Source of the DNA: a virus
Taxonomy: Duplodnaviria > Caudoviricetes
Strand: one strand, 5' to 3'
Length of the DNA: 61,313 nt
Virus record (IMG/VR): IMGVR_UViG_3300024431_000003
Span: 1 to 61,313 of that record
Positions 8,963 to 41,320 of this stretch are shown here, one piece after another (position 1 is the stretch's first letter; every line of letters begins with the position of its first letter). Made by a program: the position numbers and the translations under genes. Under the pieces are notes generated by a model, which was given only the letters and a program-made list of their open reading frames with translations, ran no database searches and was not told the origin of the DNA.

Positions 8963-11883
8963 TGTCAGCAAGAGCATCAGCAGTCGCTCAGGCGATACGT
9001 CGTCTTGAGCAGTACAGAGCCGGGAGAACCGTTCAGCCTGGAGTGTTCTCTACTCTGGACGAAGCGATCCTGGATGCTCCGTTTGAAGTAAACAGTGGGG
9101 ATCAGTGGCTGAACTACCTCAAGCCTGGACGTATGGTCAGACGCGAAGGTGTCCAGTTCCCATTGAAGAAAGAGGAGCTTGATTGGGCTGGCGAGTTCGG
9201 AATTGAAGATCTCATTGGTGGACAGGACAAGCTGACGAGGGAAGAGGTTCGTAATCTGATTCGCGGAAATCGGGCAGTCTTTGAGATAGACGTGGCGAGG
9301 GAAAGCTACGGAGACCGTCCGCACCATCTAATTCCACAATCTGATGACGCAGAGAAGGGACCGTTGGGTCGAGCGTACACAGACACGATACTCGCGGGAA
9401 ATGTTGAAGGCGATAAGCTCCTTGGTCTTAATCGCATCAGGCACGTTGACCCAGAATTCGGAACAGAGTATGGTGGAAGAGAGCGCTACCACCACACGTC
9501 CCCGGGAAGCACGTACGAAGAAAGTATTACTCGGTTGAGAGGACTTCAATCTGGAGGTCACTTCGGTCCGGATACACTTTCATGGTCACGCACAACGACT
9601 CATCTGTTACCGCAGAAGAGTTTTGAAATAGGAATACAAGATCCAAAGAGAGTACGGATCGTTGAGGAAATCCAATCAGACGTTAATCGTAGAGCAGCAC
9701 AGAAGATGTTCCACGATCCAAAGACCGGCAAGACTTACGAATCTGAGTGGGCAGTCGGTCAGGCAGACCTCGAGATAGAAGACATGATCCCCGAGCGCAG
9801 AGGGTATCTTGGGATAGACGATAGTATAGAACTTGAAGACACGATAGACGAACTCGCCAGGATCAATAAAGAAATTGAAGCGACGAGTCCCATCAATAAA
9901 GATAAGATGGCGGACATCCGTCACTTCCAACTGAATGAAGAGTTTGATAAGCTGGCGAACATCAAGGAGCGGCTTGAAGCCAAAGTGCAGAATGTTCCAT
10001 TTAAGAATCCGGGGGACTATGCTCAAATGGAACTGCGAAAGCAGTTGATGAACGCAGTGGATGAAGGAGAAGACTACCTTGCTCTCGCGCGCGGCAAAGA
10101 CCAGATAGAAAGGTACTCCAACATCAATCAAGGACAGATGCCAGCGAAGAGCGAAAAGGGTATGGTGAGAATGTACGACGAAGTCTATCGCGGCGAACTA
10201 GACAAGCTCGCGCGAAGGTATGGTGCCGTCGTAGAAGATATTGAGTTTGAAGTTGATGCCGGAACAGAGGTACGTCCACTCACAATGGCAGTTGAAGACT
10301 ACGAAGATCCAATTGACCTTATGCACTCTATGATTGACTACGTCCAGGAAGGTTCTAGCAAGACAGACGCGATAACTGGTATGGGAGACTTTGAACGCAT
10401 CGTCGCAGAAATGATAGATGATGTTCCTAGTGACGTTGCTGATTGGAGTTTGCTGGATGTGCCGCCGATGGAGCTACTGAATAGGAACTCTGCGATCCGT
10501 AGGTTCGTCCTCGAAAACTGGGAGGGTGTCGCTGCGGATGATCCGACTGCGATGGCACGATGGGCTGAGTTCAAGCCAGAGAACCAGATCAAGAACTTAA
10601 TAGAAGACTTCAGTATCGCGTACGATGAATACACAAATCTGATGGGAGCCGGAGGAAGGAGTGTATCTGTAAAGAGCTTCCCGGCAATGAAGCTGACCCC
10701 GGAAGTGAGGGAGAAGATCAAGCTGCTCGGCGTTCCTCAGTTCAAGAAGGGTGGACTCGTCAAGTATAGCGCTCAGGCATTTCAGATGGGAGGGCTCGCT
10801 GGTCTTAGACGGCCGAGCAAAGACTTCTACGAGATCATCCCATCCAAAGAATTCAGGGAGAGCCTGGACGAAGAAGGACTGGAGGAGCTGAAGAAGCTCA
10901 ACAAAGAACTGTCAGGTGGCGAGCAAGGTGAGTGGCTCCAAAAGTACCACGAGGAGCAGGAAGACTCGCGGAAGTACAATGAACTCAAGTATTGGACGGA
11001 CGCACTGAAGTTCATTCCGGCATACGCGGCCGGACAATGGAAGACCCTTGACCCAGAGACAGGGAAACCGAAGTGGCACTTCGGACACTCAGCTCCACCG
11101 TTTGAAATGGTAGAGATGGGCGTCATGACGATGGATGAATGGCAGGAGATGAAGGAGTTTGCCAACAAGAAGAACAAGGAAGATCCGTTTCATCCTGGCA
11201 TCATTGATGACCTGAAGGCAGTCGCCGCTCTACCGGCAATTATCGGCAACGTATTCGGCGGCGACTTCACTCCTCCCGCGTTCTCAATAGAGGGAGCGGA
11301 GCGAATGGAGCAGATGGCTCGTGGTCAGGAAGAAGAGTGGGGTCTTGATCGGCCGCAAGGTTTCCCTCAGCACTTGATGGGAGCGCTCGGTACGATGGTG
11401 GCTCAAGTTCCTACTCCTGCGTCTGTCACGAAGGGACTCGTAACGAAGGTAGATGATGTACTGTTGCCTCTGACCACTCGCATTCCACAAGTAGTGAAGA
11501 CAGCGACAGCAGCACCAAGAGCAATCGCTGGAGCCGGAGTAGAGTTCTTCAACCCCACGATCGTTCCATCACCGAAGAGCTACATGATGGGAGCAGGGTT
11601 CGGCGGAACACTCGGTACGGCAATGGAACCGTCAGATGAAGAATTTGAGCAGATGGAACAGCAACGTAATCAGATGCGGTTCTTTGAAGAGAACGCTATG
11701 CGTGTCACATCGCACGTGGAAACACACTGGGACGATATGAATTTAGAGGAGAAGGTAGAGTGGGTGAACTCACCATACAACGACGCCGTCTTTGGCGCAC
11801 TGTCCGATGACCAGTATAGGCAGATGATGCAAGACTTTGAAGAGGCTGGATTACTGGAGGAAGACAATGCCGAGCAAGAGTAA
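8962..11883 (+). CDS. Large, probably virion-delivered polyvalent-type protein
   Basis: N-terminal FSTLDEAI..SGDQWLNYL..KKEELDW and a VEEIQSD motif resembling large phage polyvalent proteins; central GG motifs. Confidence 0.5.
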   Translation: MSARASAVAQAIRRLEQYRAGRTVQPGVFSTLDEAILDAPFEVNSGDQWLNYLKPGRMVRREGVQFPLKKEELDWAGEFGIEDLIGGQDKLTREEVRNLIRGNRAVFEIDVARESYGDRPHHLIPQSDDAEKGPLGRAYTDTILAGNVEGDKLLGLNRIRHVDPEFGTEYGGRERYHHTSPGSTYEESITRLRGLQSGGHFGPDTLSWSRTTTHLLPQKSFEIGIQDPKRVRIVEEIQSDVNRRAAQKMFHDPKTGKTYESEWAVGQADLEIEDMIPERRGYLGIDDSIELEDTIDELARINKEIEATSPINKDKMADIRHFQLNEEFDKLANIKERLEAKVQNVPFKNPGDYAQMELRKQLMNAVDEGEDYLALARGKDQIERYSNINQGQMPAKSEKGMVRMYDEVYRGELDKLARRYGAVVEDIEFEVDAGTEVRPLTMAVEDYEDPIDLMHSMIDYVQEGSSKTDAITGMGDFERIVAEMIDDVPSDVADWSLLDVPPMELLNRNSAIRRFVLENWEGVAADDPTAMARWAEFKPENQIKNLIEDFSIAYDEYTNLMGAGGRSVSVKSFPAMKLTPEVREKIKLLGVPQFKKGGLVKYSAQAFQMGGLAGLRRPSKDFYEIIPSKEFRESLDEEGLEELKKLNKELSGGEQGEWLQKYHEEQEDSRKYNELKYWTDALKFIPAYAAGQWKTLDPETGKPKWHFGHSAPPFEMVEMGVMTMDEWQEMKEFANKKNKEDPFHPGIIDDLKAVAALPAIIGNVFGGDFTPPAFSIEGAERMEQMARGQEEEWGLDRPQGFPQHLMGALGTMVAQVPTPASVTKGLVTKVDDVLLPLTTRIPQVVKTATAAPRAIAGAGVEFFNPTIVPSPKSYMMGAGFGGTLGTAMEPSDEEFEQMEQQRNQMRFFEENAMRVTSHVETHWDDMNLEEKVEWVNSPYNDAVFGALSDDQYRQMMQDFEEAGLLEEDNAEQE

Positions 11884-12544
11884 GAAACAAGCGAAGTTCA
11901 TGCGAGCAGTTGCGCATGGATGGAAGCCAGATAGAATGAAGGGTCCGACCATAGCGGTCGCGAAGGAATTTGTAAACGCAGATAGGAGAAAGAAAGTGAA
12001 CGGGTATCAATTTGGTGGAATGGCAGGGATGATGAACAGGTTTCAAGGACAGAGAGGAGCCTTCGGTGGAAGAGACCCGAGAGCGATGCCGCCTCAGGGT
12101 GGAGGAGGAGCTCTTTCACAGGTCAGAGCTCAGGCTCAGGCTCAGAGAGGACAGGTAGGAATGAGGAACCCGCGTCAGCGCATGATGCCTCCAGGTCGTG
12201 GTCCTCGTGGTCCGGTCAGACCCGGGATGCGTGGTCGTGGTCCGGGAGGTCGTGGAGCGCTCGGTCAGATGCAGCAGCAGTTCCAACGTCAGCGCGGAGC
12301 CTTCGGTGGAAGAGACCCGAGAGCAATGCCGCCGAGAGCAATGCCAGCAGTGCCGCCTCAACGTGGTGGTGGAAAGTACGGTTCCCTGTTCCCGGGGAAA
12401 GGACCGAGACCAATGGTTCCTCCGAGTCCGCCGCGTGGATATCCCGGTGGAGGGAACCCGAACGTCGGCGGACGTAATCCGATCATGCGAGGAGCTCGCG
12501 CTCGCATCGGAGGCGGAGGACGCGGTCGAACTTCTCTGTACTAG
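11867..12544 (+). CDS. Basic protein with a MPSKSKKQAKFMRAVAH head and an RGG/Pro/Gln low-complexity tail
   Basis: GGAGG RBS upstream of ATG 11867; last gene of the + arm. Confidence 0.7.
   Translation: MPSKSKKQAKFMRAVAHGWKPDRMKGPTIAVAKEFVNADRRKKVNGYQFGGMAGMMNRFQGQRGAFGGRDPRAMPPQGGGGALSQVRAQAQAQRGQVGMRNPRQRMMPPGRGPRGPVRPGMRGRGPGGRGALGQMQQQFQRQRGAFGGRDPRAMPPRAMPAVPPQRGGGKYGSLFPGKGPRPMVPPSPPRGYPGGGNPNVGGRNPIMRGARARIGGGGRGRTSLY
12056..12333 (+). repeat. 38-bp intragenic direct repeat (12056-12093 and 12296-12333, one mismatch)
   Basis: ggagccttcggtggaagagacccgagagcRatgccgcc occurs twice, 240 nt apart, encoding GAFGGRDPRAMPP. Confidence 0.9.
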
Positions 12545-12824
12545 GCACAGGGAGGGAAGTTTACCAGATGGACAGCTTAATACTGCTCACTTTTTGGACA
12601 GCCACTAGGACGCCTGTAGAGGCTCTGGCTGGTCGTTCGGGTACTATGGGGATGTGTGGTGCAGGGTAGGCAGAACGCCGATTTGGGGGATGCTGGGACA
12701 GTGTGCTGGCGGAGGGTGCTGCGCGGGTACGTGCCACGCTGCCTGTAGGACCGCACAGCACCCGCTCCCCCGGCACCCGGTACAGGTGCCAAGCAGAGCG
12801 GTCGCGGACAGTACGCGGGTTCGA

Positions 12825-12956
12825 CTATGTGGACAGCCAGAATGTGAACGCGCAGATGAGATAGAGACCGAGCAAGGATAAGACGACTTCCCAGTCATCG
12901 ACCATAACCACGCCGATCAATGCGAAGATGCTCATGGCAATCAAGTTCTCATTCAT
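12825..12956 (-). CDS. Small membrane protein
   Basis: 43 aa with two short hydrophobic stretches; AGGAGG upstream. Confidence 0.55.
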   Translation of the reverse strand: MNENLIAMSIFALIGVVMVDDWEVVLSLLGLYLICAFTFWLST

Positions 12957-12957
12957 A

Positions 12958-13329
12958 TCAGCCCTCCTTATCTTGGTCGACGTAGTCAGGTCCCGGCTCG
13001 CCGGACTGATCAAGATCAAGGATAGCATGTAGTCTGTCCGGCATCTGCATCGGTACGGTGTACGTCTCCATCAGTGTCAGCAGTGCGTATGCGATCAGGT
13101 CTTCAAGCGAGTCTCTTCCTTCTTCTAACTCAATGGTCGCCTTGAACAGATCAAACTGGAACTGCTCAGCTCCAGCTTCAACGCGACTATACTTGCGGTC
13201 CAGGTTGAAGAACGCACTGTATCCGCCGTGCGACTTCCAGCTTGAACCGTATGCTTCATCTTTCTTTATGATCGTCTGTACGATCTCGTCGGCTATCTTC
13301 TGTAGCCTTTCCTTCTCATGTGGCTTCAT
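12958..13329 (-). CDS. Nucleotide modification-associated domain 1 (Nmad1/DUF1599-like, all-alpha NTP pyrophosphatase-like)
   Basis: KKDEAYGSSW...NLDRKYSR...DSLEDLIAYALL motif; adjacent to the TS homolog. Confidence 0.7.
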   Translation of the reverse strand: MKPHEKERLQKIADEIVQTIIKKDEAYGSSWKSHGGYSAFFNLDRKYSRVEAGAEQFQFDLFKATIELEEGRDSLEDLIAYALLTLMETYTVPMQMPDRLHAILDLDQSGEPGPDYVDQDKEG

Positions 13330-14323
13330 GGTTCTTCCTCCTCGTCATCCACTGAGTACATGCAAGAGACCAGTCCTGCGACGCGATGTTCTTGCACAGA
13401 TGCAACGCAGATTCCATATCGCCTCTCTTGTAACATCTCCAGGCATCGCGCATTGGATACGCGGTCTTGCTGAAGAATAGATCTTGGTACATAATCGGGT
13501 CATCCCAGTCATCACCGAAGAACCGATTCAGGTCTGTGTCCCAGATGTTCGTGGACTGATTGATGATGGCAGACGATGAGATGCGGCTCGGAGTGTATCC
13601 GTGACCGGCATAGTAATCCTGCTCACCATACGCGGCTCCCATGAACAACTTCTTGATCGTCGGGTTCTCCATGTAGTAGTGCCACGAATCGCTGATGTGA
13701 TAGTACAGTCCCATCTTGCATCCGATCTTCCGTGCCATGTATTCCTGAAGCACACTGAAGTGAACTGCGTTCGCACCGTAGCATCCCCAGATGATATCGT
13801 TGCTCCGACAACAGACTGTCATGTTCAGCTTCCCACCACGGATCTTGAAGTAGATGTGCGTGTTGCATGGGATGTCTCGCTTGTCCGCGTTGAGATCGGC
13901 GACCGGACTCCACATGTCAACCACTGCACGGCGACTGTCAGGGTTCTTGCGAAGTAGATTGGCAACACCAATCAACTGATCGATGCCTCTGCGCCATCGG
14001 TATCCATACGCTCCGTGGAATCTGCCATCATCTTCAGCGAACTGCGTGATGTTCTTACTGAACTGACCAATCCACTGTGCATCATCGCGTCCTTGCAACA
14101 TCCAGAGTGCTTCCATCAAGTGGAAGAATGGATTGGCATCACGCACGTCGCAGAACAGAACACGTCTCCACGGCTTTCGGTACACGGTAATGACTGGCTC
14201 CAGGTACTCGCGCGTCTCCTTGCCTTCGCGCGGAGTTATCTCGCACCAGTTATCATCGTTCAGGATAATCTGCGCTGCCTTCCTGAACGCTTCGTTCACG
14301 TTGTCAACGTCTATTAGCATCAT
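13316..14323 (-). CDS. Thymidylate synthase-family enzyme, likely dUMP hydroxymethylase
   Basis: SRRAVV, DIPCN (catalytic Cys), RSNDIIWGCYGAN (Asn indicates dUMP specificity) and SWHYY; neighbours are hmU-modification genes. Confidence 0.85.
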   Translation of the reverse strand: MMLIDVDNVNEAFRKAAQIILNDDNWCEITPREGKETREYLEPVITVYRKPWRRVLFCDVRDANPFFHLMEALWMLQGRDDAQWIGQFSKNITQFAEDDGRFHGAYGYRWRRGIDQLIGVANLLRKNPDSRRAVVDMWSPVADLNADKRDIPCNTHIYFKIRGGKLNMTVCCRSNDIIWGCYGANAVHFSVLQEYMARKIGCKMGLYYHISDSWHYYMENPTIKKLFMGAAYGEQDYYAGHGYTPSRISSSAIINQSTNIWDTDLNRFFGDDWDDPIMYQDLFFSKTAYPMRDAWRCYKRGDMESALHLCKNIASQDWSLACTQWMTRRKNHEAT

Positions 14324-15204
14324 GTCGTACTCCTTTTGTATTTGGATCGTGGTCGACCCTCGTTTCTATACACTCGCATCCACTTGTCAAACTCGCACAA
14401 CGAATGCTCTATCTCGCGCATCTCCAGGGGAGGTACATGCTTCCCCCGGTACTTCGGCGACGTCTTCAGCATCTCCTGCATGAACTCGATGTACGGACCG
14501 GCTCCTTTGAACACGTTCTTCTGTGCGTCATTGCCGACGATCCGGTTGATGCCTCGCCTCGCTCCCGGTCCTAGGTTCGCCCACTTCTTTCTGTCGGGAG
14601 CCTTGTCTAGCATCCCGGGCTGATAGCGCATATCGCAGATGACTTCGTACGCTGTGAACATACCTTGCATCGGGTACGCTGATAGGATCTTCGTGCATCC
14701 TTCCATCGTGCCGTCGGCCATCATCTCCTCCCAGATCTTACGACGTCCACGCCACTGAACACCGAGCGCATCGCACACCAGATCTATCTTGGGTTCAGTG
14801 CGACCAGCGTTCGTGATGATGTATGCTCCGGTGAATATCTTCTTCCCCCGGTCTGCGTTCAGGTGCAAGATACGCTTCATCTTCGCGGGTCTGTTGTGCG
14901 TAGTCTTGCCGCGTGTCAGCAGGTCATACGTTGACGCAAGGTTGAACGCGCGGAACATGATCATGCTGTAGAGCTTGTCGGCTGGCATCAGATCCAGTAT
15001 GTCTATCCGCTCGTGGAACCTGATGGTCTCTGCATCTAGCTCACGGAATACGTTCGTGAACTTGTACTCCTGCAAGATCTTATCGTTCGTCCAAGGCCAA
15101 GGACGGTCAGCCTTCTTGTGGACGTAGATCTGGTGTCGCTCGTTGATCCACCAGTAGAACTTCGCGAGCCGTGAAGATGGCGTCTTCATATCCTGTTCTC
15201 CCAT
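14320..15204 (-). CDS. 5-hmdU DNA kinase helical domain (aGPT-Pplase1 family)
   Basis: WINERHQIY..PWPWTNDKILQEYKFTNVFRELD, G.FTAYEVICD, NLGPGARRG and EIEHSLCEFDK motifs. Confidence 0.85.
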   Translation of the reverse strand: MGEQDMKTPSSRLAKFYWWINERHQIYVHKKADRPWPWTNDKILQEYKFTNVFRELDAETIRFHERIDILDLMPADKLYSMIMFRAFNLASTYDLLTRGKTTHNRPAKMKRILHLNADRGKKIFTGAYIITNAGRTEPKIDLVCDALGVQWRGRRKIWEEMMADGTMEGCTKILSAYPMQGMFTAYEVICDMRYQPGMLDKAPDRKKWANLGPGARRGINRIVGNDAQKNVFKGAGPYIEFMQEMLKTSPKYRGKHVPPLEMREIEHSLCEFDKWMRVYRNEGRPRSKYKRSTT

Positions 15205-15734
15205 AGGAGCTCAATGATTTCCTTAGTCGGCTGGTCCATGTTCAGCACGACGGGATTCGCCTTGTCGTACACTGCTCGCTGGAGATATCGCATGTTCGCC
15301 CAGAAGAGCTTCTCCGTGTTCTCCGTGTTGAACGGCTTCGTATTTCCTGCTGCCTTCCTACGCTTGCGAACCCTGGAGATGCACGTTCGCAGTGGAGTAT
15401 CCAGGAATGCGAAGGCGAACGGCTGCTTCGTGCGGCGATGATGCACTAGGTTCTTCGCGTATCCGTTGCTGATGGTCAGTCCCTCATATATAACGTGACC
15501 GAGCTTGCAATACTTACCGATGCGACGGCGGATCTCATCTTGTGTTTTGATGGTGTCACATCCACCGCAGACGTTGTCGTACCGTCCGATGACATAGATG
15601 GGCTGAGCCCAATGGATTACAACGGCGACGACCTTCCCTTTCACAACGACGTCTCCATGGTCAAACTTCTCCATGAGCTCCCTGATGATGGTGGTCTTTC
15701 CGGCTCCACTCGTTCCGCGTATGTTTATGATCAT
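15186..15734 (-). CDS. P-loop kinase associated with thymine hypermodification
   Basis: Walker A GTSGAGKT, IGRYDNVCGGCD and LDTPLRTCISRVRKRR; coupled to the aGPT-Pplase1 gene. Confidence 0.8.
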   Translation of the reverse strand: MIINIRGTSGAGKTTIIRELMEKFDHGDVVVKGKVVAVVIHWAQPIYVIGRYDNVCGGCDTIKTQDEIRRRIGKYCKLGHVIYEGLTISNGYAKNLVHHRRTKQPFAFAFLDTPLRTCISRVRKRRKAAGNTKPFNTENTEKLFWANMRYLQRAVYDKANPVVLNMDQPTKEIIELLWENRI

Positions 15735-16396
15735 ACTCGTTTCACTCCTTCTTTTAAGTCACTGATAGTTCCCTTGTATCCACTCCGATGGAGCGGTCTT
15801 GTTGCCACGAAGACAGGCTTCTGGAACAGGTGTACGTTATCAAAAATGAACGTGACAGGTCTGCGTCCCTTCGCCTCGTAGTCAATATCCTTATTCCACT
15901 TCGGCACTCCCCACTTCTTATCTATCTCCATACGAACATGACCGTGAGGGATGAAATAGTTCTTCGGATTGTACTTGGTCTTGTCCGTCAGCTTCCGCTT
16001 CGGCATGTAGATGTCGCCGAGGTTATTCTGTGGCGCTATCTTCTGGATCCATGCGTCACGATGATGCTCGTTCATGTACTGCCCGAGATCATAGTTGCTG
16101 TCAAAGACGTTGCTGATGCGAGCGAGGAACAGTAAGTAGCTGTCGCCGCATCCTACCTTCGGCGTGAATCCTGCGATGTACGTGTAGATCCAGTCGACGT
16201 TCGCTGTCCTCATGTAGTGCTTGCATGTTGACAGGGTAAGAACTCCGCCTTGCCAGTTGGGACCGGAGCGCGTCTGTTTGAAGATGCCGTCCTCCAGGTA
16301 GATTTGATGCTGCGGAAAGGTGCGGACGATGTCATCGTCATGCGCTTGGATGGTTCTCTTCTGACCCCATCCTTTGAACGATTGGTAATCTCTCAT
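15731..16396 (-). CDS. Nucleotide modification-associated domain 2 (Nmad2)-like protein
   Basis: PNWQGGVLTLSTCKHYMR and GDIY motifs; GGAGG RBS upstream of ATG 16396. Confidence 0.65.
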   Translation of the reverse strand: MRDYQSFKGWGQKRTIQAHDDDIVRTFPQHQIYLEDGIFKQTRSGPNWQGGVLTLSTCKHYMRTANVDWIYTYIAGFTPKVGCGDSYLLFLARISNVFDSNYDLGQYMNEHHRDAWIQKIAPQNNLGDIYMPKRKLTDKTKYNPKNYFIPHGHVRMEIDKKWGVPKWNKDIDYEAKGRRPVTFIFDNVHLFQKPVFVATRPLHRSGYKGTISDLKEGVKRV

Positions 16397-16407
16397 GTTC
16401 TTCCTCC

Positions 16408-16445
16408 AAAGAAAAGGGGAAGCGCATCCGAAGACACGCCTCCCC
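16408..16445 (-). terminator. Rho-independent terminator with UUCG tetraloop
   Basis: On the - strand: GGGGAGGCGTGTC-TTCG-GATGCGCTTCCCC-TTTTCTTT. Confidence 0.85.
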
Positions 16446-16464
16446 AATCCACGTCACGATAGCC

Positions 16465-17247
16465 TCAGAGATTGTAACGTCCGGCCTCATCCATGGACTT
16501 CGCCTTCAGCGAGCCAAAGAGTTTCCGGACAGACTTCTTGCTGATGCCAACAGAGTCAACGACCTCCATCACTGACGCGCCACTGCGCCGCTTCAACATC
16601 TTGGTCACCTTACCTTCGTGGACCGCAATGCTATTCGCGCGACCGTTGCCGTTCTTCTTCTTCGACGCCGCTTTCTTCGCAGTACGAGTGGCCTTCTTAC
16701 CGACCTTCTTGTTCACTGCTCTCTTACTTGACGCCTTCTTCTTACTTGCTTTCTTGGTAGCCATCTTGGACTTCCTCCTTCGCTTGGGTTTCAGCCGGAC
16801 TTTCCCCGGCCACATCTTCCACTTTGAATCGTAACGCAGGAGAGCCGCTTGTGACGTATCTTCTGTGTCAGTGAATAGTGCGTGGAATATACACTTCACA
16901 GTTCCGAGCAATGAAGCGTGTTCACGATGCTTCGGCTGCTCTCCTGTGATTTCTTCAATGAAAGTACTCAGGTGACTGTAGCTCCAGCTTGCGACCTCCG
17001 CATACATATTGATGCTGAAGTCCGCGCATGGATCATCCATGAACAAGTTTATCGCTGGAGCTTTGTGACCCTGAACTTTGATGAAGTCATAGAACAACTC
17101 CATCGCTCTCTTGTCACCTATCCCCGGCCTGAACTTGATCCCACGATGGAGACACTGTTCCTGCGTCGGTACTCTCTTCTTGCGCTTCTTGCGCTTCACC
17201 TTCTCCTTAGTCGGTGTCGTCATCATCTTGTTTAACTTCTTCGTCAT
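16465..17247 (-). CDS. Protein with a Lys-rich linker and a C-terminal winged-HTH-like domain; probable internal start at 16764
   Basis: MATKKASKKK... is preceded by AAGGAGGA; C-terminus is similar to ORF 29213-29413. Confidence 0.65.
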   Translation of the reverse strand: MTKKLNKMMTTPTKEKVKRKKRKKRVPTQEQCLHRGIKFRPGIGDKRAMELFYDFIKVQGHKAPAINLFMDDPCADFSINMYAEVASWSYSHLSTFIEEITGEQPKHREHASLLGTVKCIFHALFTDTEDTSQAALLRYDSKWKMWPGKVRLKPKRRRKSKMATKKASKKKASSKRAVNKKVGKKATRTAKKAASKKKNGNGRANSIAVHEGKVTKMLKRRSGASVMEVVDSVGISKKSVRKLFGSLKAKSMDEAGRYNL

Positions 17248-18656
17248 AGTTTATACCTCCTCTTCAGTGCCTTCAGAAGATCCCGCTGAGTCCTACTCCT
17301 TCCATCAAGCACATCAAGCATCACATCATCCACTGTATCTTCAGCGACCAGATGGTATGCGATGACACTGTGTTCCTGACCGTCTCGCCAGACACGCTGA
17401 TAGAACTGCTCGTACGTGTCCAGGTCAAAGGTCAGTCCGTAGTATAACACGTTCCTTCCACCGTACTGAAAGTTCAGCCCGTGACTCATCGACTGTATCT
17501 GACCAACGAGAGTCGTGAGACGACCTTCGTCCCAATCTTTTTTCAAATCCTTCTTGTGTTTGCGCGAACCTTTGTACCGGGGGATCTTCAATCCAGCCCG
17601 GTTCATCATCTCTATGTCATGTTCAAACTCCGTGGCAATGAGCAGAGGCTGACCCTGTAGTTCATCTATCAGTTCGCCGAGTGCCTGTACCTTCCGCTCA
17701 TGTATCATGGTCCAGTTCTTATGCCGGTCATGGTAGATGGCTCCGTTCGCCGCCTGACGTAGCTTGGCAGTCGCGACGGCTGCGTTCGCTGCGATGAGCG
17801 TCTTGCCTTTCCATTCTGCAATGAACTCCTTCTCCAGTTCATCGTACACTCTGCGCGGTCCAGGCGGAAGCTTGACCACCAGATCAAAGAACTCAATCGG
17901 CGTCTTGTTATCACGCTCGGCTCGGTGGATGCGCGGAGCGATAGCTTCCTGGATCTCTTCTGCCGCTCCCTCACGTATGACGTAGTCGTATCCCTTGTAT
18001 CCGGCCGGATTGAAGTACCTGTTCCTGAACCCTGTGATCGTGCTGCCAAGACAACGACCCTGATCCACGATGTACATCTGAGGCCAGAGATTCAGGTAGC
18101 TCTTCGGGATCGGTGTTCCCGTGAGGATGTAACGTCGCTTGAAGCTTGGGATCATCCTACAGATTGCGCTGAACGCATTCTTCTGAAGGTGCTTCCCTCC
18201 TGTCTTGGTCTTCTTCCGTCGGCGCCGAATCCTACCGTTGCGAAACTTACTGCTCTCATCCACCACGAACATATCTATCTGCTCTGTCTTGAACTTCTTA
18301 CTGAACTTCTCCTTGAGCCACCAGAGATTTTCGTAGTTGACAATGTACACGTCAGCATCCATATCCCACGCGTCTAGTCGGCGAGCTTCACTGCCGGTCA
18401 TCACCGAGTACGACAGGTCAAGGTCGCTGAACTTTTCTATCTCCTCCGGCCAGACGTCCTCACATATGTTGACGCTCGCAGTGACCAGCAACTTGTGAGC
18501 CAGTCCTTCCTCCTTGAGGATCTGGAATGCTTCCAGTGTTGTGATGGTCTTGCCTCTGCCCGGATCCCAGAACAATCCAGCGAAGGATAGCTTCAGCATC
18601 CATTCAATCCCTTCCAGTTGCGGTCCTCTAGGCGAGAAGCTTATTTCTGAGCTCAT
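17244..18656 (-). CDS. SNF2-family (DEAD/DExx) helicase
   Basis: DPGRGKT, VVDESS, LTGTP, HGLNFQ and QFYQRVWRDGQ motifs. Confidence 0.92.
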   Translation of the reverse strand: MSSEISFSPRGPQLEGIEWMLKLSFAGLFWDPGRGKTITTLEAFQILKEEGLAHKLLVTASVNICEDVWPEEIEKFSDLDLSYSVMTGSEARRLDAWDMDADVYIVNYENLWWLKEKFSKKFKTEQIDMFVVDESSKFRNGRIRRRRKKTKTGGKHLQKNAFSAICRMIPSFKRRYILTGTPIPKSYLNLWPQMYIVDQGRCLGSTITGFRNRYFNPAGYKGYDYVIREGAAEEIQEAIAPRIHRAERDNKTPIEFFDLVVKLPPGPRRVYDELEKEFIAEWKGKTLIAANAAVATAKLRQAANGAIYHDRHKNWTMIHERKVQALGELIDELQGQPLLIATEFEHDIEMMNRAGLKIPRYKGSRKHKKDLKKDWDEGRLTTLVGQIQSMSHGLNFQYGGRNVLYYGLTFDLDTYEQFYQRVWRDGQEHSVIAYHLVAEDTVDDVMLDVLDGRSRTQRDLLKALKRRYKL

Positions 18657-18945
18657 TGGCTTCCTCCTTCCCTATGATCTTGTGCGTTTCAAATCCGAGG
18701 GCTCTGAACTCCGCTCGGTAGTAGTCCTGGAGCTTTTCCCCGCGTCGTTTCTTCTTGGCTCCCTTGCGCTTGAACTCAATGATAACAGTTCGCGCTCCGG
18801 GTCCGAAGCAGAACCTATCAGGGAATCCCCGCTTGATCTTGTCGCCCTTAATTGTAATCCATCCAGCATCCTCTATCTCCTTTACGAAGTCATCCTCGAC
18901 GACCCACTCTAACCACTCGTCTTTGCTTTCTTCCATTCGTGACAT
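18628..18945 (-). CDS. VRR-NUC endonuclease
   Basis: E..RGFPDR..IEFKR..LQ motif; next to the SNF2 helicase. Confidence 0.85.
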   Translation of the reverse strand: MSRMEESKDEWLEWVVEDDFVKEIEDAGWITIKGDKIKRGFPDRFCFGPGARTVIIEFKRKGAKKKRRGEKLQDYYRAEFRALGFETHKIIGKEEANELRNKLLA

Positions 18946-19643
18946 GGTCCAGGCCTCCCGTTCTCAAGCTTCTTATCGCTGCGCATAGGACAGCCTCCAT
19001 ACTTTTGACAGGCTGCTCCAGGGTTCGACGGCCACTTGCGATCGCTCAGCATAGCCTTCGCTCGCTTCACCCATCGGTCCCAGAGTTCGCGGCTATCTTT
19101 TGGAGTGTAGTCCTGTCCTTCTATCTCACCGTGATCGCTGAACCATAACTCAACACGAATGCTCTTCGCTTCAGGGTAGTAGAACTGACTCATCGCCGCG
19201 TACAGATCCATCTGTGCCTGAGCTATGTTCACACGTCCTGTCTTCAGGTCAACGATCAGCAGTTCTTCATCGTCCTCAAAGTAATGGTGAGCATCAAGCT
19301 TCGCTCGCAGCCACGCTCCCTTCCAATCTCTTGGGTGAGTGTGTTGTAGATCTTCAGTCAGCGTCCAGTCCATCTCTGGATTGCCGCCGAGCTTCGCTAA
19401 GTTATTGATCTCCTTCTTCAACCCTGCAAGATCGTCAGGCATTCCTGTGACGTTCCCCTTCAGCTTCTCCTCAAACAATTTGTGAATGCGTATGCCACGA
19501 TCCATCGCTCTGTTCTTTGGCGCACGATACTTCAGTATGCTTTCGAGCAGATACTGATACGCGCACCCTCTCCACTTGTTATACCTGGAGATGGACCAGA
19601 AGTTTGGAATCCTCGTACCCTTTGGAATTCTTACTCTCTTCAT
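18909..19643 (-). CDS. Cas4/RecB-like PD-(D/E)XK exonuclease
   Basis: WSISRY..C, KLD, VDLKTG, QMDLY and a C-terminal Cys cluster; ATGA overlap with the polymerase stop. Confidence 0.85.
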   Translation of the reverse strand: MKRVRIPKGTRIPNFWSISRYNKWRGCAYQYLLESILKYRAPKNRAMDRGIRIHKLFEEKLKGNVTGMPDDLAGLKKEINNLAKLGGNPEMDWTLTEDLQHTHPRDWKGAWLRAKLDAHHYFEDDEELLIVDLKTGRVNIAQAQMDLYAAMSQFYYPEAKSIRVELWFSDHGEIEGQDYTPKDSRELWDRWVKRAKAMLSDRKWPSNPGAACQKYGGCPMRSDKKLENGRPGPCHEWKKAKTSG

Positions 19644-21508
19644 CGGATGTCCCTGTGTTTTTTCATTCTTGCCCAAGATCGTACACCGATCTCACCATCG
19701 GATAGCATTGGCAACTTGAACTTCACGTCTTCCATCGCCTCCCTCATCCGATCCATTTCTGCCAGCGCATGTTCCTTCGGCACACTGCAAACGAGTTCGT
19801 CGTGTACCTGTAGCACGATGCGTCCGTGCTGCATGTTCTCCCAGACGTTGATCATACCTTGCTTCGTGCAGTCAGCGGCACTGCCTTGAATTTTCGTGTT
19901 GAGCATCTTGTATTCAAACGTTCGCTTCTCCCTCCCTCCGTCGGCCGTCTCAACGTAGATGGGTTCTTCGCAGTAGTACTCGCGTCCTCCCCATGTATAA
20001 AACGGTTCGCCGTTCTTTGCCAGAGCGCGCAGTTCACGCATCACCTTTGAGATCCCCGGGACCGCGCGGAGTACTGCCTTCTTCAGCGTTCGCGCTGCCG
20101 TCTTCTCTAGCTCCAGGCGAGCGGCGAGCTTCGCGATCCCCATCCCGTAGATGATGCCGAAGTTCGTTTGCTTGATGTGCTTCCGTGGGAAGTTCATGCC
20201 TGTATCCTGCGCCACTAAGAACCTCACAGCATCGTGCGCATCCATCGTCGGATCCTCGTGGTACATGGCAAGGAACGCTCCCTCTTCAAAGTGCGCGAGG
20301 ATGCGAAGCTCCTGCTGATTGTAATCGCGTCTCAGGAAGACGTGTCCTTCATCCGGCTCAAAGTAATCACGGAGCCCAATGAAGTTCACTCCCTGCTTCT
20401 TCAGCAAGACCTGGAGCTTCTGCAAGATCTTCCAGTGCGGTGAACCGTCAACTGACGAAGGCACGTTTTGAAAGTTCGGGTCACTACTACTGAGCCGACC
20501 AGTCCGCGCTCCTTTGCCTTTGCCTCCACCGTACTCGTCCGACGACCGGACAGTGTTGAACGATGGCTGAATGTACCTGTCATTGATCTCACCGATGTCC
20601 AGCCAGTTCTGCAGGAACGTGCCGATGTACGTTTGACAGGTGCCGTAGATCGCAAGCATCTCAAGCAACTTGGGATCGGTGCAGTTCGCTTCCAGCACTG
20701 CTCGAGCGGTACTCACCTTCCCTGTCTTAGTCTTAACGATGTGGCTCAGCAAGTCGTTCTTGATCAGTGCGTCTGCGAGCTGAGGTCCGCTGCTCGGGTT
20801 GAACTTCATGCCGAGTCGGCGCTGAATGGATCGCTCCATATTGTTCTTCACCTTTATATACGCACCGATCTCACGCTTGAGCTTCGGCAGTCGTACTCGG
20901 ATACCATGCTGCTCCATGTGAAGCTTGATGGGGATCAGCTTCATCTCTCGCTCGTACGCTTCAGGCATGTATCTGATCACTTCCTTTTCCCATAGCTTGA
21001 ACAGACCCATCGTGCGATGAACGTCTCCCTTCGCATACGGACTGACGATAGAGCCGGGAGCCTTGCAGATGTACTCTCCCCATCGTGTCTTCCGCCGCTT
21101 CGCTTCGGGTACGTTCTCAAGGATCCAGTTCTTCAGCATGTTCTGTTCTTCCGGCGGCTCACCGAGCCACTCTTCAGCCTGAGGCTTGAGTGATAGCGTC
21201 AATGCTCGTGGTTCATTTAGAAACGCAAGACGAAGCGTATCATGATAAGGCTTGTTGACTTCAATGCCGTCTTGCGCCATGACCTCCAGGTCGAAGTCAG
21301 CGTTGTGAAACACTGGCGTATGATCTCGTATTACTTTCTTCACCTCTCTAACTGCTTGTGCTTTCGTGCAGTTGTTTCCTGATGGATGACCGAACGCTAG
21401 ATACTTCTTCGTTCGGCCGTACTTGATCGCATACCCGACGGCTCGTGGTGGATACTCCGGCCGCGAACGTATCGGGTGCGTCTCTGCGTCAATCGCTGCT
21501 AGGCTCAT
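19640..21508 (-). CDS. polA: DNA polymerase family A with 3'-5' exonuclease
   Basis: Exonuclease motifs IDAET, FHNADFD and YAKGD; polymerase motifs TGRLSSSDPNFQN, DYNQQELR, KQTNFGIIYG and QVHDE. Confidence 0.95.
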   Translation of the reverse strand: MSLAAIDAETHPIRSRPEYPPRAVGYAIKYGRTKKYLAFGHPSGNNCTKAQAVREVKKVIRDHTPVFHNADFDLEVMAQDGIEVNKPYHDTLRLAFLNEPRALTLSLKPQAEEWLGEPPEEQNMLKNWILENVPEAKRRKTRWGEYICKAPGSIVSPYAKGDVHRTMGLFKLWEKEVIRYMPEAYEREMKLIPIKLHMEQHGIRVRLPKLKREIGAYIKVKNNMERSIQRRLGMKFNPSSGPQLADALIKNDLLSHIVKTKTGKVSTARAVLEANCTDPKLLEMLAIYGTCQTYIGTFLQNWLDIGEINDRYIQPSFNTVRSSDEYGGGKGKGARTGRLSSSDPNFQNVPSSVDGSPHWKILQKLQVLLKKQGVNFIGLRDYFEPDEGHVFLRRDYNQQELRILAHFEEGAFLAMYHEDPTMDAHDAVRFLVAQDTGMNFPRKHIKQTNFGIIYGMGIAKLAARLELEKTAARTLKKAVLRAVPGISKVMRELRALAKNGEPFYTWGGREYYCEEPIYVETADGGREKRTFEYKMLNTKIQGSAADCTKQGMINVWENMQHGRIVLQVHDELVCSVPKEHALAEMDRMREAMEDVKFKLPMLSDGEIGVRSWARMKKHRDIR

Positions 21509-21717
21509 TCAAGTTCCCTCCTGATCTCTTCGCCTCGGATACCGTTGTATCTCTGCGTCAATCGCTTGAGGAAGGTTCCTCTTGGTTTTCTTCGCTCGTT
21601 CTCCAACTCTAATGCAAAGATTACCTCTTCGGCATTCATGTCCGCGAGGCACTCGTTGAGCGTAGTCCAATTCTTCACAGCCTTCGCGACGAATCGTTTT
21701 CTTACTTCCATGCTCAT
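21505..21717 (-). CDS. Hypothetical protein
   Basis: AGGAGG RBS; coupled to polA. Confidence 0.7.
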   Translation of the reverse strand: MSMEVRKRFVAKAVKNWTTLNECLADMNAEEVIFALELENERRKPRGTFLKRLTQRYNGIRGEEIRRELE

Positions 21718-21730
21718 CCTCCTAAAGAAA

Positions 21731-21809
21731 TGAGACCGGCCCGACTTTCACGGGCAGTGTCATTGTCCCGGACTAAGGGTGACAAAGTCCTAGGCTGACA
21801 GCGATCTCA
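21731..21809 (-). ncRNA. Predicted multi-stem cis-regulatory RNA
   Basis: Nested pairings on the - strand: TGAGATCG/CGGTCTCA, TGTCA/TGACA, GGACT/AGTCC and GCCCG/CGGGC. Confidence 0.5.
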
Positions 21810-21818
21810 ATTAGTTTA

Positions 21819-22115
21819 CTACCGACCGAACTTACGGAACTGACGGTCACAAGTTTCCGCCATCTGACGGACTCCTGATGCCTGTCGTTTGCGTTCCTTA
21901 CCGGAGTCGGCGATTGCCTTCCCCATGTACCCAGACGCGATCATCGTGCGCATGAAGCGTTCGATGCGTTCTTGGTTCGGCTCATACGGAGGCAACTTCT
22001 TCCGCGCACTACGAGTCCTCTCGCGCTTCTTGCCATCCTTGTTCTTCACCGCTGTCTTCTTGCTTGACGCCTTCTTACTTGCGGTCTTCTTCTTTCCTGC
22101 TTTCTTGGTAGCCAT
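21819..22115 (-). CDS. Histone H1-like basic protein
   Basis: MATKKAGKKKTASKKASSKK; AGGAGAACG RBS. Confidence 0.7.
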   Translation of the reverse strand: MATKKAGKKKTASKKASSKKTAVKNKDGKKRERTRSARKKLPPYEPNQERIERFMRTMIASGYMGKAIADSGKERKRQASGVRQMAETCDRQFRKFGR

Positions 22116-32125: not shown

Positions 32126-32761
32126 TCACGTCAGCCGGTCCCCCGGCACCACGTCTCTATCGTACGTCGCCCATTTCCGGTGAGGAATGAACGCATTATC
32201 TTTCGGCCAGAATCCCCAGTCCCTCTTCAGTGGTCCGGTCAGGATGATGGTCCGGAATGTATTCGCCGGCTTCAATACGAAGTGTCGGTGTGTCGCTCGC
32301 CGAAAGTGCGGCAGGAACGCGCGGACCTTGCGTATCCGTCTCCTCCAGTACGTCGGGTGATCTCCAGGTCGGCGCTGACGCCAGTCGTACCACGGAAACG
32401 GGCTCGGTATCTGTTCCTCCACCGTTTCATAGTACGTGGTGAACGGTATCGTGATGAACCACCACGGATGGTCATGCACTGCGCTGTCGTCGTCACCCTG
32501 ATAGAACGTGTGAAGCCTGATGTGGAACCACTTGAACCAGAACATCCGTCGGTCCAGGTAGAGACGGTAATACGTGTTCCCCGCTATCGTGTGCTTCACC
32601 ATGTACTCAGGGCTCGGTCGCTCCTGCATGTACTCGTTCCCCGATACCGGGAACCAGACCTGATCGTGCAAGAAGCCTATCTTCCTCTTGTACGTTCCCT
32701 TCGGCCAGTCACTGACGGTTTCAACGTGGCTCCTACTCTTCTCTGATAATAGTGCCATCAC
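32126..32761 (-). CDS. Cupin-fold (cysteine dioxygenase-like) protein
   Basis: RLHTFYQGDDD..HDHPW..YYE...HRHFV..TIILTGP..DWGF motifs. Confidence 0.65.
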   Translation of the reverse strand: MMALLSEKSRSHVETVSDWPKGTYKRKIGFLHDQVWFPVSGNEYMQERPSPEYMVKHTIAGNTYYRLYLDRRMFWFKWFHIRLHTFYQGDDDSAVHDHPWWFITIPFTTYYETVEEQIPSPFPWYDWRQRRPGDHPTYWRRRIRKVRAFLPHFRRATHRHFVLKPANTFRTIILTGPLKRDWGFWPKDNAFIPHRKWATYDRDVVPGDRLT

Positions 32762-40357: not shown

Positions 40358-40697
40358 ACAACTGATCTGTCCTGATTGCGGTGACGAGCATGAAGGTGAT
40401 GTAGAGATGGGAGAGATTGAGTTCTGCGAACTGCATGACGGCGAGATACGGATGGCTCTCATTCAGCGTGGCTTCGGGGAGGACCTGGAGCTTGATAAGG
40501 AAGAGCGAAGGGATCGGTTCCTTGATGGTCATCCTGACGCGCTCGTAGCTATCAAGAACCGTCTGGTCATGGGATGCCTCCAGACGTTCGGCGGCGACAT
40601 GATACTCTCGAACAATGGATGCCCGGTCTGCGTGTTTCATAGTGTGATTGAACAGGCTGCGGACGGGGTCGCAGTGGAACGGACGAGGAAGAACTGA
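40347..40697 (+). CDS. Hypothetical Zn-binding protein
   Basis: CPDC, CELH and CPVC motifs. Confidence 0.6.
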   Translation: MTVEQLICPDCGDEHEGDVEMGEIEFCELHDGEIRMALIQRGFGEDLELDKEERRDRFLDGHPDALVAIKNRLVMGCLQTFGGDMILSNNGCPVCVFHSVIEQAADGVAVERTRKN

Positions 40698-41320
40698 TGG
40701 CTAAACTCGCCGGCCTCAAACGGTTCATCCCGCTCCCTCCGAAGCATGAGGAGCTGAAGCGACTGAGGAAGCTCCAGGAGAAGTACATCACGAGCCTGGA
40801 CAAGGATCAGCTCGGAGCTCTGGAGAGCCATCTCATTGGACCATACGAGAGCATGGAGTTCGGATACACGGGAGGATACGGCACAGAGGAACTCGCACAG
40901 AGAATGGATGCCATCATCTCCGGAGCTCCACGAATGAAAGACCCGATGACGGTGTACCGTGGTTCATCCCGGAGGAGAATGATACCGGAGAACGAGTACC
41001 CGCTCACAACGACCATTGATCCCACTCACGCGGAAACGTATGCCGAAGGATGGGCAGGAGACCGAGGTCTGTTCAATGAGATTGAAGTACCTGCGGATGC
41101 TCCGGCTCTGGCGATACCTGATGAGAAAACGCTTCGCAGACTGACTGGAGAATTGCCTCCGTTCGGTGACGAGATGGAGATCCTGCTACCGAAGAGTGAT
41201 CTTGATCTATTGAAGAAGTACGAACATGGAGAAGCGTGGCCGATGGAGCCTGAACGATTCATAGAATATGAGAAGGTCCGATACAAATCACCATACAAGG
41301 CAGAAGGAGGTCTGGTGTAA
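40697..41320 (+). CDS. ADP-ribosyltransferase (R-S-E clade, Alt/Mod/VIP2-like)
   Basis: TVYRG, LTTT (STS-equivalent), A..Y and EMEILL (ExE). Confidence 0.7.
   Translation: MAKLAGLKRFIPLPPKHEELKRLRKLQEKYITSLDKDQLGALESHLIGPYESMEFGYTGGYGTEELAQRMDAIISGAPRMKDPMTVYRGSSRRRMIPENEYPLTTTIDPTHAETYAEGWAGDRGLFNEIEVPADAPALAIPDEKTLRRLTGELPPFGDEMEILLPKSDLDLLKKYEHGEAWPMEPERFIEYEKVRYKSPYKAEGGLV

Follow-up and report, generated by a model that had tools for sequence, protein, structure and literature searches.

The Pseudomonas phages M6, YuA and PaMx11, and likewise ViI, PhiW-14 and SH-Ab 15599, hypermodify thymidine through a pathway that consists of a deoxyuridine monophosphate hydroxymethylase, a 5-hydroxymethyl-deoxyuridine (5-hmdU) DNA kinase (5-HMUDK) and an amino-acid:DNA transferase (AADT; aGPT-Pplase2 or PUGT), followed by tailoring through pyridoxal phosphate (PLP), radical S-adenosylmethionine (radical-SAM) or flavin adenine dinucleotide (FAD)/acetyltransferase enzymes. 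To our knowledge, every thymidine hypermodification pathway that has been worked out uses the AADT family after the DNA kinase. The present analysis concerns a cluster of five genes (gA to gE) in the IMG/VR viral record IMGVR_UViG_3300024431_000003, from an uncultured marine phage, which was examined at its whole length of 61,313 bases (CheckV completeness estimate 100%) and is called the window below. In this cluster and in five others from otherwise unrelated phages, the kinase is kept and the AADT is dropped, and in the place of the AADT stands Nmad2, a family with a name but without an assigned function.

The first steps of the established M6/PhiW-14-type pathway are, in the accessible text of two reports, the conversion of deoxyuridine monophosphate (dUMP) to 5-hmdUMP, its incorporation, and the phosphorylation of 5-hmdU in the DNA (PMC5889632, PMC8989533). 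The window resembles M6 in carrying a thymidylate synthase (TS) homologue (gD, 40% identical to gp58), a P-loop 5-HMUDK (gB) and an HMUDK_hel protein (gC, 33% identical to gp55). The position of the cluster beside a PolA/SNF2 helicase module and the order kinase-HMUDK_hel-...-TS are also shared. Unlike M6, the window is devoid of ADDT (the Pfam transferase family), of tailoring enzymes and of Nmad5 (M6 gp56), and upstream of the kinase it encodes an Nmad2-like protein of probable PUA fold where M6 has gp51-gp53.

Two further systems are comparable. In marine phages of the HTVC023P type (pelagiphages), TS and aG/PT-PPlase1 have been described as "partner AMGs" (auxiliary metabolic genes) near PolA (mSystems 2022, PMC9599517), sometimes together with a 5′-deoxynucleotidase and a glucosyltransferase. 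This pair agrees with the TS found in 74 of 80 viral HMUDK_hel loci and with the TET-associated-type glycosyltransferase (TAGT) of a sister phage of the window, G006 (both below). Neither a kinase nor an "Nmad" is mentioned in the accessible part of that report (PMC9599517), and the window adds a kinase and an Nmad2-like protein to the pair. The other system is an Escherichia coli defence system validated in 2026, which, as far as its accessible description goes, comprises a thymidylate synthase, a deoxynucleoside monophosphate (dNMP) kinase, a 5-hmdU kinase and an NMAD domain (DefensePredictor, Science, PMC13092281). Like the window, it couples a TS homologue to both a 5-hmU kinase and a nucleotide-modification-associated domain, but it is bacterial and defensive. 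The TS/aG/PT-PPlase1 pair (PMC9599517, accessible text) and the kinase + AADT pathways are already in print, whereas the AADT-less phage cluster of kinase and Nmad2-like protein appears to be new; no description of it was found in the titles and abstracts searched, with an earlier mention in supplements being possible. The same titles and abstracts, a search that left supplements and Iyer et al. 2013 outside its range, did not say what Nmad2 or the clade-1 aGPT-Pplases do. The names Nmad and aGPT-Pplase themselves are said to originate from Iyer et al. 2013.

A first-pass annotation of this DNA had proposed five coupled genes in the order Nmad2-like protein, P-loop kinase, helical domain, TS homologue and Nmad1. 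This layout was reproduced at the same coordinates, with five minus-strand open reading frames (ORFs) spanning 12958-16396 and overlapping, from gA to gE in succession, by 4, 19, 4 and 14 bases:

gA, 15731..16396, minus strand, 221 aa: divergent Nmad2-like protein with a probable PUA-like (YTH/EVE/ASCH) core
gB, 15186..15734, minus strand, 182 aa: P-loop 5-hydroxymethyl-dU DNA kinase (5-HMUDK), assigned by Pfam
gC, 14320..15204, minus strand, 294 aa: HMUDK_hel protein, aGPT-Pplase clade 1, a paralogue of the amino-acid:DNA transferases that resembles helix-hairpin-helix (HhH) glycosylases, assigned by Pfam
gD, 13316..14323, minus strand, 335 aa: homologue of thymidylate synthases, assigned by Pfam and predicted to hydroxymethylate dUMP
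gE, 12958..13329, minus strand, 123 aa: small helical protein, putatively Nmad1/DUF1599-like by profile and Atlas kinship

The kinase and its partners were traced among viral records. Homologues of gA were found in five other viral contigs (L003-L007; 33-73% identity), and in all six loci, the window included, gA, the kinase and HMUDK_hel are adjacent or overlapping. TS is present in four of the five other contigs. ADDT is absent from these five whole records at E≤1, and hence from six out of six with the window; three of the five, and four of the six, are at least 90% complete by CheckV. A search with the 150-row alignment of the gA family retrieved three viral loci, all of which were already in the set. 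From the side of HMUDK_hel, 576 stretches were confirmed in viral contigs, 80 loci were kept (L091-L170) and 50 records were searched whole. Within 9 kb of HMUDK_hel, TS occurs in 74 of the 80 loci, a gE-like gene in 61, a kinase in 10 and gA in one, which is a contig already known. The common viral unit is HMUDK_hel with TS and the gE-like small protein. The kinase was detected in 9 of the 50 records (seven by Pfam at E≤1e-3, L134 and L164 by a local profile). ADDT scored above the cut-off in seven of the 50, all of them kinase-positive, and in none of the 41 kinase-less records, while the Nmad2 profile matched none of the 50. Two kinase-positive records have no ADDT: L104, a fragment of 5 kb, and L126, a provirus of 78% completeness. 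In the records examined, the kinase is accompanied by ADDT or by the Nmad2-like protein and never by both.

In L126, an overlapping Cys-rich ORF of 264 aa (10641-11432) follows HMUDK_hel and the kinase. It has no Pfam match, is neither ADDT nor Nmad2, and proved unrelated to both Nmad2 and M6 gp51 when it was considered as a relative of either; it may represent a third kind of kinase partner.

The absence of the transferase from the window itself was examined at several levels. The ADDT model (PF18724), which recovers M6 gp51 with 159.6 bits as a positive control, gave zero matches at E≤10 in the six frames of the window, so that the canonical transferase whose discovery could have overturned the first-pass annotation is not detected in this complete genome. 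Pfam scanning of the 87 other ORFs, together with PHROGs, revealed no ADDT and no PLP, radical-SAM or FAD enzyme. The same scans retrieved no acetyltransferase, glycosyltransferase or dihydrofolate reductase (DHFR), and in this last respect the annotation was borne out. Nmad3, Nmad5 and DUF1599 do not occur in the six frames either, and no TIR match was obtained among the window ORFs in the Pfam scan.

The kinase is well defined. gB matches Pfam HMUDK_HMUD1 (PF18748) with E 2.7e-11 and 43.8 bits against a cut-off of 27, and its P-loop, GTSGAGKT, is intact; the kinase call of the first-pass annotation therefore holds. In an alignment with 14 other viral kinases, G7, G10, G12 and K13 are invariant in all 15 sequences. 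M6 gp54 and others phosphorylate 5-hmdU in duplex DNA, according to the accessible text of PMC8989533. By family, gB is thus a 5-hmdU DNA kinase, with an activity predicted from its characterised homologues. As a side observation, both PHROGs (phrog_800) and the RefSeq entry of M6 gp54 tag this kinase family as "terminase small subunit", which is a propagated misannotation and concerns the kinases at 15186-15734 of the window and at 8957-9520 of L002.

The upstream partner of the kinase, gA, had been labelled Nmad2-like at first sight. It has no direct match in Pfam (hmmscan, E≤10), PHROGs or NCBIfam, and the Pfam Nmad2 model (PF18753, cut-off 26.1 bits) finds nothing in the six frames of the window, so gA lies below the family cut-off. 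The label nevertheless stands at the profile level. In detail, a profile built from 21 gA homologues retrieved 469 representatives among 1.84 billion proteins, and 132 of the best 150 of these matches carry Pfam Nmad2 at E≤0.01. One homologue with 46% identity to gA has itself a sub-threshold Nmad2 match (23.6 bits, E 4.2e-5), and 132 of 145 family sequences share the motif Q.[GR]S[GA]PN[FW].G..TL.TCK...R. The structural neighbours of the ESM Atlas model of gA are also Nmad2 clusters (TM 0.79 and 0.59). On this profile-level and structural kinship, gA is a divergent Nmad2. A relationship to Nmad5 was rejected, as the profile comparison with M6 gp56 showed the two to be unrelated. Among 50,697 cultured phage records, tblastn with gA produced no match at E≤1e-3.

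Residues Q41, P46, N47, G50, T57, C58, K59, R63, W73, K119, G127, D128, Y147, H153, W167, D170 and R204 of gA are nearly invariant throughout the family. When 22 close (phage-branch) and 144 wider members were tabulated, C58, K59, R63, D128, H153 and D170 remained invariant across both sets. The phage branch differs from the rest of the family at a few positions: position 43 is Arg in 22 of 22 phage-branch sequences versus Gly in 125 of the 144 wider members, position 155 is Arg in 22 of 22 versus His in 125 of 144, position 56 holds Ser, Thr or Ala in all 22 versus Cys in 113 of 144, and Lys166 is fixed in the phage branch only. Judged from the alignment, the extra basic residues of the phage branch would suit a phosphorylated ligand.

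The AlphaFold2 (AF2) model of gA is of high quality (pLDDT 96.5, pTM 0.91). Its strongest rows in Foldseek, all weak, were AF2351, the EVE domain of THYN1, ZmASCH and McrB-N. An exhaustive VIA structure search against 48,161 chains placed 2kku first (Z 6.4, 131 aligned residues, root-mean-square deviation (rmsd) 4.1), followed by YTH domains (Z 5.2-5.6), ZmASCH (5.1) and the EVE protein PH1033 (4.8), with VcaM4I (4.2), THYN1 (4.1) and McrB-N (4.1 and 3.8) in lower rows. The PUA-like superfamily makes up the majority of the top 23 rows. This superfamily includes base readers as well as ASCH-type enzymes. Overall, the core of gA aligns with YTH, EVE/THYN1, ASCH and McrB-N proteins over 105-147 residues (Z 3.8-6.4, rmsd 3.4-4.5); it differs from them in its larger size (221 aa), in its own invariant set of Cys-Lys, His and Asp, and in that all Z scores are below 8. 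A profile search of the PDB with the wider Nmad2 alignment returned nothing, and no sequence-level tie to PUA-like proteins was found. The core may thus be PUA-like, a weak match in which the single scores are modest and the rows agree.

The HMUDK_hel protein gC corresponds to the aGPT-Pplase1/5-hmdU-kinase helical domain of the first-pass annotation (PF18723, E 5.2e-51, 174.1 bits against a cut-off of 25, profile positions 4-278 of 281), and in the Pfam scan it matches HMUDK_hel only and not ADDT. Its C270, E271, K274 and R277 and the motif GPG..RG..R are invariant in 29 viral sequences, regardless of the presence of a kinase. In its AF2 model (pLDDT 93.5), the top Foldseek match is PaMx11 gp46/PUGT, a glycinyltransferase of 5-phosphomethyl-dU (5-PmdU), with probability 0.98-0.99 and TM 0.43-0.46. 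VIA gives the same first row (Z 12.2, rmsd 3.6, 221 of 288 residues aligned), with HhH DNA glycosylases next at Z 7-10.5. Therefore, the statement that the genome has no recognisable transferase is correct for the ADDT family model, and it is weakened by gC being the nearest structural relative of PUGT. The PDB sequence search with the HMUDK_hel profile returned nothing meaningful, C270-E271 was placed on the Cys region of M6 gp51 by a short local alignment only, and one HMUDK_hel gene showed a sub-threshold ADDT match at profile positions 129-228. The nucleophile of PUGT is Cys247, as stated in the accessible text of PMC11472151. The kinship with a solved glycinyltransferase and the invariant Cys-Glu pair make gC a third candidate for the downstream step. 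At the same time, 41 of the 50 HMUDK_hel-bearing viral records have no detectable 5-HMUDK; gC is not kinase-specific, which corrects the first-pass annotation and makes the Pfam name "kinase helical domain" misleading. It has the look of a partner that goes with the hydroxymethylase in general and would act on 5-hmU DNA whatever decoration follows.

The TS homologue gD matches Pfam Thymidylat_synt (PF00303, E 1.6e-22, 80.3 bits against a cut-off of 24.3) and phrog_5131 (E 8.3e-100). The Cys of its motif IPCNTH aligns with the thymidylate-synthase nucleophile, and the Asn of GANAVHF falls on the TS Asn, a position that is Asp in the CMP hydroxymethylase MilA, in agreement with the dUMP-type Asn noted at the outset. 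The PF00303 match ends at residue 219 of 335, which shows a C-terminal part unlike classical TS. The identity to M6 gp58, the absence of DHFR and the linkage to HMUDK_hel point to gD as a predicted dUMP hydroxymethylase.

Taken together, these observations may be arranged in a pathway. On homology and context, gD would convert dUMP to 5-hydroxymethyl-dUMP. Host kinases and the phage family-A polymerase would then place 5-hmdU in the DNA, as in the M6/PhiW-14 pathway, and gB would phosphorylate it there to 5-PmdU. The putative PUA-like base-binding pocket of gA may receive the flipped 5-PmdU, with Arg43, Arg155 and Lys166 holding the phosphate and Cys58, Lys59 and His153 displacing it with a host nucleophile. 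A single step would yield a thymine derivative, and no tailoring enzymes would follow. That gA acts on 5-PmdU is suggested by its strict tie to the kinase, by the exclusion of ADDT, by the active-site-like invariant residues and by the lack of any other conserved partner; no other candidate enzyme was found in the genome by Pfam and PHROGs. We favour, tentatively and at somewhat less than even chances, the proposal that the Nmad2-like protein acts on phosphorylated 5-hmU in place of an AADT and displaces the phosphate. The phage DNA probably holds a thymine variant that is as yet undescribed. A shade more doubtful is the broader proposal, that the phage branch of Nmad2 constitutes a new class of DNA-base-modifying enzymes on a PUA-like "reader" fold, which has replaced the HhH-type transferases as the consumer of 5-PmdU and yields an undescribed thymine derivative.

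Several points weigh against this proposal. The Foldseek search with the gA model had nothing at E≤0.001, VIA gave eight chains at Z≥5 and none at Z≥8, and the best-characterised structural neighbours (YTH, EVE, McrB-N) are readers and not enzymes. The phage branch is devoid of the Cys56 and His155 that most of the family holds. In bacteria and archaea, where 80 loci of Nmad2 genes (L011-L090) were collected with the 22-row alignment, Nmad2 lies beside Nmad3 (30 of the 46 scanned neighbours) and not beside kinases. With local profiles, neither HMUDK_hel nor the phage TS was matched in these 80 loci, and the kinase gave one weak match (L060, E 4.8e-4). The Fisher test for the exclusion of ADDT and the Nmad2-like protein gives p 0.007, a value that overstates independence as the records are related. 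A terminal 5-PmdU that gA reads or shields would, moreover, predict this exclusion just as well, so that comparison by itself does not separate the two readings. As for gC, the nearest relative of a solved transferase, it keeps the Cys-Glu pair and could itself displace the phosphate. A complex prediction for the kinase and the Nmad2-like protein scored 0.01, where the mark is 0.32, and is uninformative for either side.

The main rival, that 5-PmdU (or 5-hmdU) is the final base and the Nmad2-like protein a non-catalytic reader which binds or shields it, seems to us rather unlikely, although the fold favours it. Such a protein could serve as a shield against phosphatases, glycosylases and nucleases or for the recognition of the phage's own DNA. 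The YTH, EVE, McrB-N and ASCH domains are the nearest solved structures of the gA core, and the conserved aromatics Y27, W/F48, W73, Y147 and W167 together with R43, R155 and K166 suit a cage for a phosphorylated base; the phosphate would also be expected to persist only where the transferase is missing, which matches the exclusion of ADDT. However, the Cys-Lys, His and Asp that are invariant family-wide resemble an active site more than a cage. In addition, we know of no dedicated reader inside a phage modification operon and of no natural DNA with phosphomethyl-uracil as its final base, with no search aimed at either. The tie of the Nmad2-like protein to a kinase without ADDT fits both limbs of the choice offered by the first-pass annotation, a terminal phosphorylated 5hmU or a new step by Nmad2, and does not separate them. 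It is improbable that gC attacks C6 and displaces the phosphate, either attaching a nucleophile or converting 5-hmdU to thymidine in situ, with the Nmad2-like protein as an accessory. This would fit the resemblance to PUGT, the invariant Cys270-Glu271 with its local alignment to M6 gp51 and the sub-threshold ADDT match, all described above. The use of Cys247 by PUGT (PMC11472151) would also agree, as would the conversion of 5-hmdU to thymidine, a step stated as unexplained by Lee et al. 2018 (PMC5889632), both in the accessible text. On the other side, the 41 gC records without kinase mean that the usual substrate of gC cannot be 5-PmdU, and the constant pairing of the kinase with ADDT or the Nmad2-like protein is left unaccounted for. 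Furthermore, a Z score below about 13 in a helical protein may mean merely a common arrangement. The available text of PMC8989533 presents only clade-2 aGPT-Pplases as amino-acid:DNA transferases, and M6 gp55, of clade 1, was dispensable there for the formation of N-alpha-GlyT in lysate reconstitution. A last scheme, in which the DNA is not modified at all, gD makes dTMP like any ordinary synthase and its neighbours belong to nucleotide metabolism only, is very hard to sustain. The TS nucleophile and the dUMP-type Asn of gD are in its favour, but the 40% identity of gD to its counterpart in M6, a phage with DNA derived from 5-hmdU (PMC5889632, accessible text), its place beside members of a DNA-base kinase family and of an HhH family of DNA enzymes, the missing DHFR and the early end of the PF00303 match all speak against it.

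As an enzyme, the Nmad2-like protein would provide a second route from phosphorylated 5-hmU to a modified thymine, and the resulting DNA base would probably be new. As a reader, it would make phospho-hydroxymethyluracil a natural end-state base with a binding protein of its own. Either outcome would bear on the bacterial defence system of TS homologue, 5-hmU kinase and NMAD domain, and, should the phage branch of Nmad2 be a new enzyme class, the same chemistry would explain the NMAD partner in such systems.

Comparison with related genomes delimits the module. The window, G001 and G006 are syntenic genome-wide, and the HMUDK_hel of G006 is 71% identical to gC, yet G006 is missing exactly gA and the kinase. 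Upstream of HMUDK_hel, G006 (L091 7414-12453) has a UDG-like gene and one or two Pfam-less ORFs, and between HMUDK_hel and TS it carries the TAGT gene (PF20691, E 6.2e-17). The distant carriers G004 and G005 have in common with the window just HMUDK_hel, the kinase and gA (and TS in G005), and in G002 and G003 only replication genes are shared beyond the module. Two unrooted trees, one of the kinase and a quick one of HMUDK_hel, each require at least two changes of the "kinase + Nmad2-like" state. The cluster is best explained as a mobile module for thymine modification which is complete in itself and dispenses with the known amino-acid:DNA transferase.

The last gene of the cluster, gE, was initially called Nmad1. 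It has no match in Pfam or NCBIfam, and DUF1599 (PF07659, cut-off 25 bits) matches neither gE nor anything else in the six frames of the window; the 49 homologues of gE carry no Pfam domain. Their conserved motif is KD.AYGSSWKSHGG.SAFFNL.RKYSR. A possible kinship with Nmad1 is drawn from a feature neighbour in the ESM Atlas (rank 3, score 0.92), an "Nmad1 domain" cluster with DUF1599 on 44% of its members, and from one bridging ORF (L115 5500-6033; one of 50 records) that is matched by the gE profile at 5.9e-6 and by DUF1599 above the cut-off at 3.1e-7. The Nmad1 name of gE is less firmly founded than the Nmad2 name of gA. A PDB sequence search with the gE profile returned nothing meaningful. 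In relatives, the slot of gE is taken by an HD domain (L004), MazG (L007) or NT5C (L126); its place in the slot of such nucleotide hydrolases makes a role in clearing the nucleotide pool likely. As judged from its neighbourhood, gE would most likely help to exclude dTTP, dUTP or dTMP from the pool.

The upstream boundary of the cluster is marked by a further element:

hairpin, 16416..16445, minus strand: 13-bp GC-rich stem followed by a T-tract, resembling a terminator or attenuator ahead of the first gene

Its RNA fold has an energy of -28.5 kcal/mol (z -3.26), and the region holds three terminator-like sites against a shuffle mean of 3.7, that is, no excess. A Shine-Dalgarno sequence, GGAGGA, lies between the hairpin and the start of gA, and the ATG at 16396 is consistent with this sequence and with the starts of the homologues. 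The surroundings of the cluster form a replication module like that of M6 and PhiJL001, with PolA, a PD-(D/E)XK nuclease, an SNF2 helicase and a primase; the 260-aa protein upstream has no significant match to M6 gp49. Near-identical DNA (window 12000-21900) is present as assembled contigs in 20 public runs from 10 studies between 2017 and 2025, originating from marine, marine sediment and subsurface metagenomes, so the phage is real and recurrent.

The cultured phage PhiJL001 (L001 5547-9396) encodes an HMUDK_hel homologue in the gp19 region (local profile, E 4.5e-69); its gp24 is a TS homologue and its gp22 is annotated as a glucosyltransferase. In its 12-kb stretch, local profiles detected neither a kinase nor gA.

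In the bacterial and archaeal contigs, which include Planctomycetota, Chloroflexota and Verrucomicrobiota, an overlapping Nmad3 usually follows Nmad2, often as a two-gene operon. PRiA4_ORF3 genes, situated just upstream, account for four of the 46 neighbours scanned, and genes of thymidine modification are not found close by.

Two other ORFs of the window were recorded. A 207-aa ORF on the plus strand (40697-41320), between the terminase and the portal-region genes, has a weak, sub-threshold match to the ADP-ribosyltransferase family PF03496 (15.7 bits with a cut-off of 23.4, E 0.0095) and is present in G001 and not in G006. A 211-aa ORF on the minus strand (32126-32761), without Pfam match, matches phrog_4786, labelled "cysteine dioxygenase" (E 6.7e-22); it is kept in both G001 (51%) and G006 (47%), and hence is not tied to the pair of kinase and Nmad2-like protein.

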